Counted from the first letter of the stretch, positions 11,393-17,549 are shown. The stretch is DNA of 27,775 nt from an uncultured Heliobacteriaceae bacterium (GCA_964563495.1 CAZLYK010000070.1:1-27775), one strand, 5' to 3'. Notes: generated from the letters alone by a model not told the origin. Translations and numbers: made by a program.

Positions 11393-11479
11393 AATGGACA
11401 GGATTGACGAGATTTTTGCAGGATTCGACAAGATAATATCCTGTCAAATCCTGCACAAATCTCGTCAATCCTGTCTATT
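11393..11479. repeat. Palindromic repeat element, copy D, full nested form (AATGGACAGGATTGACGAGATTTTTGCAGGATTCGACAAG-ATAAT-ATCCTGTCAAATCCTGCACAAATCTCGTCAATCCTGTCTATT). It lies between the nagA 3' end and the SDR start. The nagA stop codon TGA is inside its right arm.
   Basis: The inverted arms are ~38 nt, with about 3 mismatches. The nagA C-terminus ...RNRQD* is read from AAT AGA CAG GAT TGA of the element. Confidence 0.75.
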
Positions 11480-12643
11480 TCTCCGATAAGCGATTTGTCC
11501 GTCGACGATCGTCGCCTCGATTTCGAGGCTGGTCGTTTGATCGTCCCAATCAAACAAGACCAGATCTGCGCTGAATCCCGGGGCGATCGATCCATATTTG
11601 TCGCTCAAACCGAGAATCCGGGCCGGATTGCCGCTCGCCATCTGCAGTGCGTCATCGAGTGTCGCATCGGAAAAGGCGACGGTCTTGGCGACGGCTTCCT
11701 GCATCTCGAGGGCCGAACCAGCGAGATAAGGGGTGCCGGGCAGGCAGACTCTGCGCGTGGGGGTGAGTTCGACCTCGACCGCACCCAGCCGGTAACGCCC
11801 TGATGGGCGTCCCGCTGCGGCGATCGCGTCGGTCACCAGAATAGTGCGACCCGGCGTCTTGCAGCGGAGAAAGCATTTGACCACAGATGGCGGCAGATGA
11901 TGGCCGTCGACGATCAGGCTCGCCCATAGATCGTCGGTGGCCAGTTGTTCCCAGATGTAATTGGGGTGCCGGTCGATCCTGGCGTGCGAGCCGTTGCCCA
12001 GGTGAGTCGACAATTTCGCCCCGGCCCGAACAGCATCGGCAATCTGTTGGGGGCTCGCCGCGGTATGACCGATCGCCGCAATCACTCCCGCCTCGACTAG
12101 ACGCTCGATCAAGCCGGTTGCCTCTGGCCATTCCGGCGACAGGGTAACGATTCCGATCTTTCCGCGGGCTGTCTCCTGCCAGCGCCGAAACCGATCCCAA
12201 TCCGGCGGGCTCACGTGTTCGCGAGGATGCGCTCCGCGCGGCCCGTCTTCGGGCGAGATAAACGGGCCTTCCAGATGTATGCCCGGATGCGAGCGGGCAA
12301 CTTCCGTCGATTGCTCGGCCGCGCGCACGAGATTCGAGATGCATTTATCTATCTGTTCCGTTGAGCCGGTGATGATCGTCGGGCAGAAGGCAGTCACTCC
12401 GGTTCGCTTCAACGCGCGCGTCGCCGCTTCGATCTCTTCGACGGTTGTCTCGGGGAAGTTGAAATCCACTCCGTTGTAGCCGTTGATCTGGAGGTCGATC
12501 CAGCCCGGCGCGATGCGCAGGCTCGGGTCGCCGAGGTCGCAGCGTACCGATCGATCAGCGGGTCGCTGATCCGTGATCAGCCCGTCGACCATGGTCAGAT
12601 CCACAACCGTATTCCCGGCTCCGATCCTGCCTCTGATCTTCAT
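11465..12643 (-). CDS. nagA: N-acetylglucosamine-6-phosphate deacetylase family amidohydrolase (NagA-like).
   Basis: Blocks align to E. coli NagA: GWIDLQINGYNGVDFN (GFIDVQLNGCGGVQFN), IHLEGPFI (LHLEGPWL), STHLGNG and LVTDAIAAAG (LVTDATAPAG). The start ATG directly abuts the stop of the upstream small ORF (TGAATG). Confidence 0.85.
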   Translation of the reverse strand: MKIRGRIGAGNTVVDLTMVDGLITDQRPADRSVRCDLGDPSLRIAPGWIDLQINGYNGVDFNFPETTVEEIEAATRALKRTGVTAFCPTIITGSTEQIDKCISNLVRAAEQSTEVARSHPGIHLEGPFISPEDGPRGAHPREHVSPPDWDRFRRWQETARGKIGIVTLSPEWPEATGLIERLVEAGVIAAIGHTAASPQQIADAVRAGAKLSTHLGNGSHARIDRHPNYIWEQLATDDLWASLIVDGHHLPPSVVKCFLRCKTPGRTILVTDAIAAAGRPSGRYRLGAVEVELTPTRRVCLPGTPYLAGSALEMQEAVAKTVAFSDATLDDALQMASGNPARILGLSDKYGSIAPGFSADLVLFDWDDQTTSLEIEATIVDGQIAYRRNRQD

Positions 12644-12883
12644 TCAGGCTCCGATCCTGGTTATCCAATAACCCAAAGCAAGCAACAGGGCGACCCACAG
12701 CCAGGCCAGCAGGAAGCCGATGACATCCAGCCGGTAGTGACGATAGCTGAACTTGCCGGGCAATCTGAGCAGGTCCACAATCATGAGCGAATGACCCTCC
12801 TCCTCCAATCGGGAGTGGGGAATCGGTGGGACGATATCGGAGATGGATTCGGTCTCGACGCCGGTTGTCCGGTTTTGAACCAT
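12644..12883 (-). CDS. Small membrane protein (79 aa, C-terminal TM helix), hypothetical. It is translationally coupled between the symporter and nagA.
   Basis: GAGAGG lies 5 nt upstream of the ATG at 12883. It starts 9 nt after the symporter stop, and its stop abuts the nagA ATG. The C-terminal helix is VIGFLLAWLWVALLLALGYWI. It resembles the small accessory subunits often paired with SSS transporters, but I cannot confirm the family. Confidence 0.5.
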   Translation of the reverse strand: MVQNRTTGVETESISDIVPPIPHSRLEEEGHSLMIVDLLRLPGKFSYRHYRLDVIGFLLAWLWVALLLALGYWITRIGA

Positions 12884-12892
12884 GGGTGCCTC

Positions 12893-15404: not shown

Positions 15405-15437
15405 TCCGGTCAAGGCTATATAAATCCTATTAATCGT

Positions 15438-15642
15438 CCTCACGTCAGGACACTTTTCTTGGCGTAGGGGAAACTAGCCGGGAAATTTAACCGCCAAGAA
15501 GCCAAGATCGCCAAGTCAACCAAGCAAAGAATGGTCATTTTAGTTGGGCCAATGGTCCGACCCCGGACCTCCTTGGCGTCTTTGCTGCTTGGCGGCTTGG
15601 CGATTTTTATACCTTAAGCATGTAAACTGTCCCGACGTGAGG
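15438..15642. mobile_element. MITE-like 205-bp element with 15-nt terminal inverted repeats (CCTCACGTCAGGACA / TGTCCCGACGTGAGG). It is flanked by AATCGT direct repeats. Inside is a long imperfect hairpin built from CCAAG/CTTGG repeats.
   Basis: The TIRs match 14/15. AATCGT is at 15432-15437 and again at 15645-15650. The interior pairs CGCCAAGAAGCCAAGATCGCCAAGTCAACCAAGCAAAG with CTTTGCTGCTTGGCGGCTTGGCG. It lies in the 5' leader of the S15 hydrolase gene, so a structured 5'-UTR RNA is an alternative reading. Confidence 0.4.
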
Positions 15643-15680
15643 TCAATCGTCTCTATTATCTTTGCATCGAGGTGACAACC

Positions 15681-17549
15681 ATGAGGAATCGAATATCTCT
15701 TACACTTTTGCTCGCGACCGCGGCGCTTCTTCTTCCCGGCTCATTCCGGAGCGGGGCGGGGCAGGAAGCCGGTCCGGCTTTTGAAACGATCGAGGCCATG
15801 ATCCCCATGCGCGACGGAGTCAGGCTCCACACGTCTATCTTCGTTCCGCGGGAGGCGAAAGAACCGCTTCCGATCCTGCTCGACCGCACACCTTACGGCG
15901 CCCCGGAATCCGCGCGCCCACTCTCCGGCGATCGGTTTAAAGAGCTGATCGCCGATGGCTATATCTTTGCCTTTCAGGACATTCGCGGTCGCTACAAATC
16001 CGAGGGCCAATTCGTCATGCAGCGTTCACCAGTCTCTTTGCTCAAACAGCAGGGCGATCCGAAAGTCGTAGACGAAGTGACGGACGCTTACGACACCGTC
16101 GCCTGGCTCGTCGGTCATGTGCCCAAAAACAACGGACGCGTCGGGATCTGGGGCATCTCCTACTCCGGATGGACCGCCGCCATGGCGACGCTCAATCCGC
16201 ATCCGGCGCTTAAAGCGGCCTCGCCGCAGGCTTCACCCGCCGATATGTATCTCGGCGACGATTTTCATCACCACGGCGCGTTCCGCCTGAGCTACGGTTT
16301 TGAGTACGCCACCATGATGGAGACCTCGAAAGAGAGTTTCTCGTTTAAGTTCGACAAATACGATACCTATGAATGGTACCTCAGGCTCGGCGCGCTCTCG
16401 AACGTCAATCGGAAATATCTGCACGGCAAGATCCCGACCTGGAATGATTTCGTAGAGCACCCGAATTACGACTCCTTCTGGCGGCAGCAGGCGATGGCCG
16501 GTTATCTCAAACGCGTGACCGTGCCGATGCTCAATGTCGCCGGGTGGTGGGACCAGGAAGATTTCTACGGCCCGCTCAAGATCTATCAGGAGCTGGAGAA
16601 GAGCGATCGGCAGAAGATCAACTTCCTCGTCGTCGGCCCCTGGAATCACGGCGGATGGGCCCGCTCGGACGGCGGCAACCTGGGCAGGATCAAATTCGAG
16701 AGCAATACCAGCCGGCATTTTCGCGAGCAGATCCAGGCGCCGTGGTTCGCATACTATCTGAAAGACAAAGGCCGGTTTGAGATGCCCGAAGCGATAACCT
16801 TTCAAACCGGGGCGAACCAATGGGGATCATACGATCAGTGGCCGCCGCGCCGGCAAACCGTCGAGCGCAATCTCTATTTTCACGCCGGGGGCAAGCTCTC
16901 ATTCGAGCCCCCCGCTCAATCGGGGCCGCGCGCTTATGACAGTTACATCTCCGATCCGGCGCATCCCGTCCCCTATCGCCCGCGACCGATCGAGCCGACC
17001 TACTATTTTCGCGGCTCTGGGTGGCCGGCCTGGCTGGTCGAGGACCAGCGTTTCGCGCACGAGCGCCCGGACGTCTTGAGCTGGGAGACCGATCCGCTGA
17101 CCGAAGACACGGCGATCACCGGCGACGTCGTCGCGCACCTCTTCGCTTCCACCTCGGGAACCGACAGCGACTGGATCGTCAAATTGATCGACGTCTACCC
17201 CGAGGATTACCCGAAAGAGCCCAGGATGGGCGGGTATCAATTGATGGTCGCGAACGAGGTCTTTCGCGGTCGTTTCCGGCGGAGCTTTGAAAAGCCCGAA
17301 CCGATCACGCCGAACAAGGTCAACCAGTATGTCATCGACCTGCACCAGTGCGATCATCGTTTTCTCAAAGGCCACAAGATCATGGTCCAGGTTCAGAGCA
17401 CATGGTTCCCGGTGATCGATCGCAACCCGCAGAAATTCGTCCCGAACATCTTCAAGGCTCATGACCGGGATTACCTCAAGGCGACCCAGCGGGTCTTCCG
17501 CTCCAAAGCCTTTCCTTCGCACTTGAAAGTAGGAAATAGACAGGATTGA
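15681..17549 (+). CDS. CocE/NonD-family hydrolase (S15 X-Pro dipeptidyl-peptidase family), secreted.
   Basis: The signal peptide is MRNRISLTLLLATAALLLPG. There is a GxSYxG nucleophile motif (GIWGISYSGW) and a C-terminal beta-sandwich region. GAGGTG lies 7 nt upstream of the ATG at 15681. The stop codon TGA and the last residues ...NRQD* are provided by repeat copy F. Confidence 0.88.
   Translation: MRNRISLTLLLATAALLLPGSFRSGAGQEAGPAFETIEAMIPMRDGVRLHTSIFVPREAKEPLPILLDRTPYGAPESARPLSGDRFKELIADGYIFAFQDIRGRYKSEGQFVMQRSPVSLLKQQGDPKVVDEVTDAYDTVAWLVGHVPKNNGRVGIWGISYSGWTAAMATLNPHPALKAASPQASPADMYLGDDFHHHGAFRLSYGFEYATMMETSKESFSFKFDKYDTYEWYLRLGALSNVNRKYLHGKIPTWNDFVEHPNYDSFWRQQAMAGYLKRVTVPMLNVAGWWDQEDFYGPLKIYQELEKSDRQKINFLVVGPWNHGGWARSDGGNLGRIKFESNTSRHFREQIQAPWFAYYLKDKGRFEMPEAITFQTGANQWGSYDQWPPRRQTVERNLYFHAGGKLSFEPPAQSGPRAYDSYISDPAHPVPYRPRPIEPTYYFRGSGWPAWLVEDQRFAHERPDVLSWETDPLTEDTAITGDVVAHLFASTSGTDSDWIVKLIDVYPEDYPKEPRMGGYQLMVANEVFRGRFRRSFEKPEPITPNKVNQYVIDLHQCDHRFLKGHKIMVQVQSTWFPVIDRNPQKFVPNIFKAHDRDYLKATQRVFRSKAFPSHLKVGNRQD

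Follow-up and report, generated by a model that had tools for sequence, protein, structure and literature searches.

High-copy intergenic palindromes, found mainly between co-directional and convergent genes, are known in bacteria as repetitive extragenic palindromic (REP) sequences, including REP doublets forming hairpins (REPINs) and bacterial interspersed mosaic elements (BIMEs). REP families have already been described as lying within 20 bp of the 3' ends of open reading frames (ORFs) and as overlapping ORFs (PMC3733652). Here we analyse a palindromic repeat present in seven copies (A-G) in a 27,775-nt stretch of DNA from an uncultured Heliobacteriaceae bacterium (CAZLYK010000070.1; hereafter the window, all coordinates being counted from its first letter), which almost certainly encodes the C-termini of some of the neighbouring genes. 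In its behaviour this repeat is closest to REP/REPIN repeats, with which it shares its abundance, its intergenic setting and its frequent placement at ORF 3' ends, which copies overlap or approach to within 20 bp. As in REPs, one end bears a TAG-containing tag (GTAG in REPs, AATAG here), the target is not duplicated, a small nuclease gene lies beside a few of the copies, and tandem arrays occur (locus L004). However, REP units are imperfect palindromes of 20-40 nt, whereas the arms of the present repeat are non-palindromic and composed of tandem units of about 9 nt; the tag reads AATAGAC instead of GTAG or CGTC; the partner gene encodes a PD-(D/E)XK protein of the GxxExxY family rather than a Y1 transposase (REP-associated tyrosine transposase, RAYT); and REP families are usually lineage-specific, whereas a single sequence family is found here across many phyla.

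The Correia elements of Neisseria and the Rickettsia palindromic elements (RPEs) are miniature inverted-repeat transposable elements (MITEs) that alter ORF ends or are translated. The present repeat resembles them in being a short inverted-repeat element located in or beside genes, to which it adds coding sequence or stop codons. It differs from them in having no target-site duplication and in the internal unit repeats of its arms, and no DDE-transposase parent was identified (RPEs are mentioned in PMC3733652). Longer members with the same ends encode GxxExxY, a PD-(D/E)XK nuclease that is not a recognised transposase.

A further parallel is provided by the intervening sequences of 23S rRNA genes (e.g. 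in Coxiella and Leptospira), in which a long stem of inverted ends surrounds an optional small ORF of unknown function, and which are regarded as selfish and sited where the host transcript is little harmed (PMC4990558). In contrast, the present repeat lies between protein-coding genes, not in rRNA helices, and its ORF encodes GxxExxY, not a four-helix-bundle S23p protein. Integron cassettes (an ORF plus attC) are similar in that an imperfect palindrome directly follows, and often overlaps, the stop codon of a small cassette gene, and some GxxExxY genes are placed between same-orientation arms, as after site-specific integration. Nevertheless, there are no unidirectional cassette arrays, no R/L box organisation and no integrase in the window, and the copies occur dispersed among housekeeping genes, on either strand. 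Finally, a hairpin just past convergent gene ends, with weak A-rich/T-rich flanks, recalls a bidirectional intrinsic terminator, but the stems described here are 20-42 bp long and of conserved sequence, lack a proper U tract, and none was called by a consensus scan.

We found no description of this repeat family, or of its link with GxxExxY proteins, in the searchable literature, and a full-text search with the repeat sequence returned only unrelated primers. What is new is a single palindrome family with near-identical 22-nt termini, physically tied to GxxExxY PD-(D/E)XK proteins.

Gene ends encoded by the repeat

The repeat bears terminal inverted repeats. Each of its two inverted arms combines a constant outer terminus, (purine-rich)-AATAGAC, with 2-4 tandem units of about 9 nt (GACAGGATT and variants) behind it. 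The outer terminus (AATAGACAGGATTGA) contains TAG at bases 3-5 and TGA at bases 13-15, i.e. stop codons in two of the three incoming frames, while the third frame is open across the entire palindrome.

Two unrelated genes of the window, encoding a nagA-like amidohydrolase and a hydrolase of the S15/CocE-NonD (S15/PepX) type, end within this terminus with the same codons, AAT AGA CAG GAT TGA (the reverse complement of 11465-11479 for nagA, and 17535-17549 for the S15 hydrolase). Their products terminate with ...IAYRRNRQD and ...PSHLKVGNRQD, respectively, and they share NRQD because the same one of three frames is read through the same terminus. These identical ends had been pointed out in a first-pass annotation, and we confirmed them in both sequence and frame, together with the location of the stop codon of the M2 peptidase gene inside a terminus of copy C, which probably also provides the last 1-3 codons of that gene. 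The same annotation placed the stops of the MFS and TonB-type receptor genes close to copies F and G, which is correct, although the distances given (4 and 5 nt) become 3 and 7 nt with the boundaries used here; the stop of the ADH gene is 3 nt from copy B. An -NRQD or -NGQD end is not restricted to the window, as it also terminates unrelated ORFs in L009 (Anaerolineales), L027, L030 and L041.

The alternative, that NRQD is ancestral protein sequence resembling the repeat by chance, was examined with sets of about 120 orthologues for each of the two proteins. Not one of the 119 S15 orthologues listed (67-78% identity) ends in NRQD; all of them terminate with ...PSH(L/V)xV(P/S)Vxx(R/K). Comparison of these ends with ...PSHLKV-GNRQD of the window indicates that about five native codons have been replaced. 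At the DNA level, two of three S15 orthologues inspected have the native end and no element, while the third (L142) retains the native end and carries a CAGGAT-type element 70 nt beyond the native stop.

The nagA orthologues have the sequence ...ATI(I/V)NGE(V/I)VY(R) in common, after which the tails are hypervariable: -NRQD, -EFRQD, -QYRER, -ESILN, -ESFMSQ and -VYRR recur, or there is no tail. Only four orthologous proteins end similarly to NRQD (-FRQD or -FRRD), and the one of these checked at the DNA level (P0103, locus L057) has the same element at the nagA junction. The best homologues of nagA come from Blastocatellia (best orthologue 73% identical), and the window, a complete contig, was accordingly read as part of a Blastocatellia-like (Acidobacteriota) metagenome-assembled genome. 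No near relative of the window genome suitable for an exact empty-site comparison was found. We compared loci with the syntenic order SSF, small ORF, nagA, SDR, M2, SCP2, ADH. Those free of the element have nagA ends -GEVV or -VYRR; in L055 there is no spacer at all, the nagA TAA overlapping the SDR ATG (end -GEVV), and in L056 the nagA/SDR spacer is 12 nt long. In L057 a CAGGAT-type element occupies the nagA/SDR junction, the stop lying inside AGACAGGATTAA and the tail being -EFRQD, while in L058 (5170-5265) a different palindrome, made of GCGAGCG units, supplies the nagA TAG and the tail -QYRER. The latter tail, encoded by the GCGAGCG-unit palindrome, was observed on nagA in at least nine species (P0004, P0011, P0014, P0020, P0042, P0050, P0060, P0090 and P0106). 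The 3' end of nagA is a hot spot for palindromic elements, and other recurrent tails (-ESILN, -ESFMSQ) may be repeat-encoded as well, but the single -ESILN locus whose DNA was inspected (L056) has no palindrome at this place.

C-termini that are shorter than, or differ from, the native ones are also apparent in the M2 peptidase (DEQNKSGK in the window vs DEQNKxLxxK in orthologues) and in the SCP2 protein (KLDQIF vs KLDQILG). Taken over all four proteins, it is the element, not ancestry, that provides the stops and last residues, as had been proposed, and the ancestral NRQD ends that would have refuted this were not encountered among the nagA and S15 orthologues. On this comparative basis we consider the element origin of the C-termini close to certain, and chance ancestral resemblance next to impossible.

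In the orthologous M2/SCP2 (or M2-downstream) spacer, each species was seen to carry a different unit-repeat palindrome, alike in architecture and unrelated in sequence (Table 1).

Table 1. Genes with repeat-encoded ends, copies of the repeat in the window, and palindromes in the M2/SCP2 spacer of other loci (positions of the last three rows are those of the respective locus).
Feature	Position	Strand	Context
nagA-like amidohydrolase	11465-12643	-	last four codons and stop encoded by the element
S15/CocE-NonD hydrolase	15672-17549	+	about five native C-terminal codons replaced by G-NRQD-stop
M2 peptidase	8425-10314	-	stop TAG (8425-8427) inside AAATAGACGGG of the right terminus of copy C
SCP2 gene	8032-8349	+	stop TAG (8347-8349) and last codon in the degenerate left terminus of copy C
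Copy A	4818-4883		66-nt palindrome; divergent spacer between an MsrP-like gene (start 4798, -) and rnhB (4992-5663, +)
Copy B	7948-8009		degenerate; 3 nt past the ADH stop (7942-7944), 22 nt ahead of the SCP2 ATG (8032)
Copy C	8343-8431		convergent SCP2/M2 spacer; includes the SCP2 stop TAG (8347-8349) and the M2 stop TAG (8425-8427, -)
Copy D	11393-11479		between nagA and the SDR gene (both -); right terminus (11465-11479) is the nagA end
Copy E	15359-15657		composite; divergent spacer between a RidA-like gene (start 15351, -) and the S15 hydrolase gene (start 15672 or 15681, +)
Copy F	17535-17620		convergent S15/MFS spacer; left terminus (17535-17549) is the S15 end; MFS stop (17624-17626, -) 3 nt away
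Copy G	22670-22715		short 46-nt form; 7 nt past the stop of the TonB-type receptor gene (22660-22662)
L056 palindrome	7823-7911		GACAAGGGG units
L057 palindrome	7876-7991		CACAAAAAGA units
L058 palindrome	7936-8090		CACGGGGAT x3

Structure of the copies and possible RNA-level function

The identities of the genes in the window are backed by Pfam matches (Amidohydro_1, Peptidase_S15 with PepX_C, Peptidase_M2, SCP2, MFS_1 and OMP_b-brl_4). Two copies of the repeat are located in convergent, three in co-directional and two in divergent spacers. With up to three mismatches, the 16-mer AATAGACAGGATTGAC occurs 13 times in the window, against 0.12 occurrences expected. The AATAGAC outer boundary is sharp, positions 0-6 being invariant in 88 arms. 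The flanks show no conservation apart from a weak bias towards purines at -3 to -1, and no target-site duplication was detected among 21 complete copies, whose flanking direct repeats of 1-6 nt matched no more often than expected.

Copy E is composite: its outer CAGGAT-type termini (15359-15391 and 15642-15657) surround other palindromes, i.e. a second inverted pair (15433-15461/15619-15647) and a nested palindrome of CGCCAAG units (about 15490-15600). Here, as in L036 (1234-1470), the loops of palindromes seem to serve as insertion sites for further palindromes. The adjacent RidA-like gene (14371-15351, minus strand) has its annotated ATG only 7 nt from the terminus of this copy, with no Shine-Dalgarno sequence outside the element; the real start codon must then be located further downstream, unless translation begins inside an element-derived leader.

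A single arm (AATAGACAGGATTGACAGGATT...) has no self-complementarity, and pairing occurs only between the two inverted arms. Folding of copies A, C, D, F and G gives hairpins of 20-42 bp with energies of -33 to -71 kcal/mol and z-scores of -6 to -18, and the stop codons of nagA and the S15 hydrolase gene are buried in stems of -60 to -70 kcal/mol. Such stability, with the stop codon buried in the base of the stem, would suit RNA hairpins kept by host selection as 3'-end structures (terminators, mRNA stabilisers, or modulators of termination or ribosome release), the nuclease then being incidental. The flanks, purine-rich on the left and pyrimidine-rich on the right, are also reminiscent of the A/U tracts of bidirectional terminators, T runs follow the downstream arms of some one-direction copies, and the same orthologous spacers hold different palindrome families in different species. 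Furthermore, Liang, Rudd and Deutscher reportedly found in 2015 that expression in E. coli is reduced by ribosome stalling when a REP is no more than about 15 nt away from a stop codon. However, no copy shows the canonical terminator pattern, and an advantage of sense-strand folding energy is absent from 22 one-direction copies (11 vs 11). Divergent spacers are occupied too, an RNA function would need neither 22-nt identity across phyla nor tandem 9-nt units, and a scan of the window with Rfam 15 at the gathering threshold gave no match to any family. Host-selected RNA hairpins are therefore, in our judgement, an unlikely explanation.

Two narrower roles were rejected. The intrinsic terminator fails because no copy is among the 20 terminator-like sites, whose number equals the shuffle expectation; G-U asymmetry, like the 11 vs 11 result for sense-strand folding, likewise lends no support to selection at the RNA level. 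A sigma-70 promoter was considered since the units contain TTGACA, but these hexamers point into the element and a scan revealed no promoter enrichment.

The units of about 9-11 nt recur in tandem, and their (C/A)AGGAT core is conserved across phyla, as might be expected if the arms were arrays of binding sites for a conserved host factor, either a CsrA-like protein recognising CAGGAU or a DNA-binding protein that would contact units set roughly one helical turn from each other. The CsrB repeat CAGGAUG does resemble the unit of the arms. Nevertheless, the GGA motifs of palindromic copies are paired in the stem, the units of related families lack GGA (CACAGAT, GCTGAT), and there is no strand bias. 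We regard this possibility as very improbable.

Placement relative to stop codons

Every one of the seven window termini that face a gene 3' end contains a stop codon or lies within 7 nt of one, and across phyla 17 of 34 such termini overlap a stop or are situated within 10 nt of it. The first-pass annotation took the pattern in the window for an insertion-site preference, e.g. for a motif close to stop codons. The wider sample does not support such targeting. Among 91 termini from many genomes, assigned by a crude gene call filtered by G+C content at third codon positions (GC3), similar numbers point at gene 3' ends (about 38) and at 5' ends (about 30, located at 4-28 nt from the start codon). 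In the window, the termini of copies A and E, both in divergent spacers, are 19 nt (the left terminus of A, from the ATG of the MsrP-like gene), 7 nt and 14-23 nt from start codons, while the inner ends of B and D lie 22 and 28 nt from the next ATG (for D, the SDR ATG at 11364), barely sparing the ribosome-binding site.

The 34 termini in question each face an ORF of 150 aa or more; the stop is inside the terminus in nine cases (three in the TAG frame, six in the TGA/TAA frame), abuts it in two, and is 1-10 nt away in six and 11-60 nt away in 16, the remaining ORF reading on into the open frame. (A first tally based on the longest ORF was rejected, being inflated by antisense shadow ORFs in high-GC DNA, and GC3-filtered calls were used instead.) The distances to stop codons thus spread over 0-70 nt, and no duplicated or conserved target accompanies them, apart from the purine bias. 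Moreover, the element-free ancestral nagA/SDR spacer measures -1 to 12 nt, and any tolerated insertion there must therefore touch the stop codon. Together with the REP precedent (PMC3733652), this makes stop-codon targeting improbable; the observation itself is true but ordinary, a known side-effect of REP-like repeats.

Distribution across phyla

A search with the exact 22-nt pattern AATAGACAGGATYGACNNGATT, using one genome per species, identified at least 53 loci. The matches listed come from Chloroflexota, Acidobacteriota, Planctomycetota, Bacteroidota (Lewinellaceae), Gamma- and Betaproteobacteria, Verrucomicrobiota, Lentisphaerota and Armatimonadota, and the repeat is present in at least eight bacterial phyla. 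Several of these matches are located on contigs of 0.2-2.8 Mb, and the GC content ranges from 0.37 to 0.73, so mis-binning cannot account for the spread over phyla. Carriage by phages was rejected as an explanation, with one match in 2.9 million viral contigs. The number of tandem units of about 9 nt reaches eight per arm (L035). In a 728-kb Lewinellaceae contig (L004, 1-852), we observed 17 tandem repeats of 49 nt, each containing three ACAGGATG units and a G-rich spacer, a BIME-like expansion.

Association with GxxExxY nuclease genes

Between the two arms of L015, and likewise of L009, there is a small ORF encoding a GxxExxY protein (TIGR04256, E = 3e-38; Pfam PDDEXK_3), whose C-terminus reads out through the arm (...ILKNPVNPVYS). 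About 94 (~78%) of the 120 closest GxxExxY homologues have tails translated from an arm in one of three frames, namely -ILKNPVNPV (-NPVNPV), -LLNSILPAG or -SFRQD, the last with the same -RQD end as in the window. A metagenomic set of 80 loci (47-71% identity, GC 0.30-0.65) gave a consistent picture. Three or more unit hexamers were present within 200 nt of 75 of the 80 GxxExxY genes, vs 28 of 148 control positions in the same loci, and exact unit arrays were 13-fold denser beside the gene. The association of the repeats with the nuclease gene is thus tight.

The units beside GxxExxY genes vary (CAGGAT, CACAGAT, CACGGAT, GCAGAT/GCTGAT and others), and their type follows the clade of the protein (permutation p < 0.0005), while the outer terminus AATAG(A/G)(A)C is common to all unit classes. 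We define a superfamily by its inverted arms, in each of which an outer AATAG(A/G)(A)C terminus precedes tandem units that are 8-12 nt long and end in GAT(T/G). This plan is shared by copies A, C, D, F and G of the window, and very probably the window copies represent the gene-less form of this GxxExxY-associated superfamily.

The gene is closely integrated with its arms. In L143 the TAG of the upstream gene is followed by 12 nt, an arm, the GxxExxY gene beginning with ATG, an arm that holds the stop of this gene in CCTGTCTGA, and 17 nt including a Shine-Dalgarno sequence ahead of the next ATG. The same protein was found to be identical on 24 contigs from many samples (L143-L150), always between YceI and aldehyde dehydrogenase genes; this cassette is stably fixed, not visibly jumping.

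Other arrangements were also encountered. One clade (L064, L067, L068, L070 and L076) has the gene between same-orientation arms, in the order arm, Shine-Dalgarno sequence, gene, arm, which is the outcome to be expected if a circular cassette of gene and arm integrated at an arm already in place. In another clade (L074, L078, L081, L082 and L087), the gene comes after a complete hairpin and has no arm behind it. A truncated GxxExxY remnant (...IDELTELVIGRAYKIH...), broken by another common repeat, lies between CAGGAT arms in L007 (5046-5352), which suggests that gene-bearing copies decay into gene-less ones.

The GxxExxY family is very large, of unknown function, and has undergone multiple horizontal transfers (PMC3424549); our search of the accessible literature for GxxExxY, PF13366 and TIGR04256 retrieved no functional study. 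The structural model (predicted local distance difference test, pLDDT, 93.8) has a minimal PD-(D/E)XK fold with invariant residues E27, D66 and E76-x-K78, and resembles Cas4, lambda exonuclease, MGME1, Hjc resolvases and archaeal splicing endonucleases at the fold level only. No solved structure is related to it by sequence, and libraries of defence systems and phages yielded just weak Cas4-like matches.

A possible repeat-plus-nuclease system

Taking these results together, the likely explanation is that of a selfish or neutral, REP/MITE-like palindromic repeat, which belongs to the GxxExxY superfamily, is linked to its nuclease, and leaves element-derived ends on genes. Its copies fill short intergenic spacers. 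A copy landing on, or spreading over, the last codons of a gene closes it within 5 or 15 nt, adding at most about five element-encoded residues, with NRQD-stop corresponding to the TGA frame. Insertions that truncate more, extend more (through the open third frame) or disrupt promoters would be purged by selection. Only the TAG and TGA frames give short, tolerable tails, of which NRQD is one, and in a compact genome such selection would leave the surviving copies pressed against stop and start codons.

More tentatively, we propose that the GxxExxY nuclease is the enzyme mobilising the repeat. It could act on hairpin or cruciform DNA without target duplication, spreading or maintaining the arms as in the REP/RAYT partnership. 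In the same tentative vein, unit-repeat palindromes and GxxExxY proteins (TIGR04256/PF13366) may form an undescribed cross-phylum repeat-plus-nuclease system, in which a minimal PD-(D/E)XK enzyme recognises its own arms (probably as hairpin or cruciform DNA) and spreads gene-less copies, the remodelling of C-termini being a by-product.

Several points weigh against the explanation as a whole. tblastn found no GxxExxY gene in the 27,775 nt of the window, host phylogeny confounds the match of unit type with protein clade, and the gene calls in foreign loci, being GC3-based, were crude. There was no sign of recent multi-copy spread of the L143-L150 gene, which had the same neighbours on 24 of 24 contigs. 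No insertion or excision was caught between near-identical genomes, mobility being deduced from copy number and varied flanks. Finally, the nuclease could be a passenger homing into pre-existing hairpins.

If so, the palindromes would be spread by another agent (e.g. a Y1/RAYT-type transposase, or recombination), and GxxExxY genes would be separate selfish cassettes inserting in or beside them. The varied architectures (arm-gene-arm, hairpin-then-gene, and gene between two same-orientation arms) are compatible with this, as are the nesting of other palindromes in hairpin loops (L036, copy E) and the absence of the gene from about 97% of copies. On the other hand, unit type correlates with nuclease clade, and the start and stop of GxxExxY genes are integrated into the arms. 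Moreover, between CAGGAT arms the only cargo found was GxxExxY, with no transposase, although no systematic or whole-genome search aimed at Y1 transposases was made in these genomes. We consider a passenger role of the nuclease less likely than not.

For annotators, the practical consequence is that short tails such as -NRQD, -QYRER and -NPVNPV on unrelated proteins are repeat-encoded. The function of GxxExxY becomes a testable question, namely whether the protein binds or cuts the flanking arms. The association also suggests that RAYT transposases are not the sole class of enzyme behind the intergenic palindromes of bacteria, there being a second one; if true, this would be the first function for the GxxExxY family, which has thousands of members.

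An additional palindrome was noticed near the end of the window. At 27724-27773, 9 nt past the stop of the last ORF (26917-27714), there is a perfect 22-bp hairpin (GCGGTTTTCAGTTTCGTGCGTC/GACGCACGAAACTGAAAACCGC, -41 kcal/mol). It belongs to a sequence family distinct from the CAGGAT repeat, and its CACGAAA motif resembles repeats of the Blastocatellia loci L033, L036, L041 and L047.

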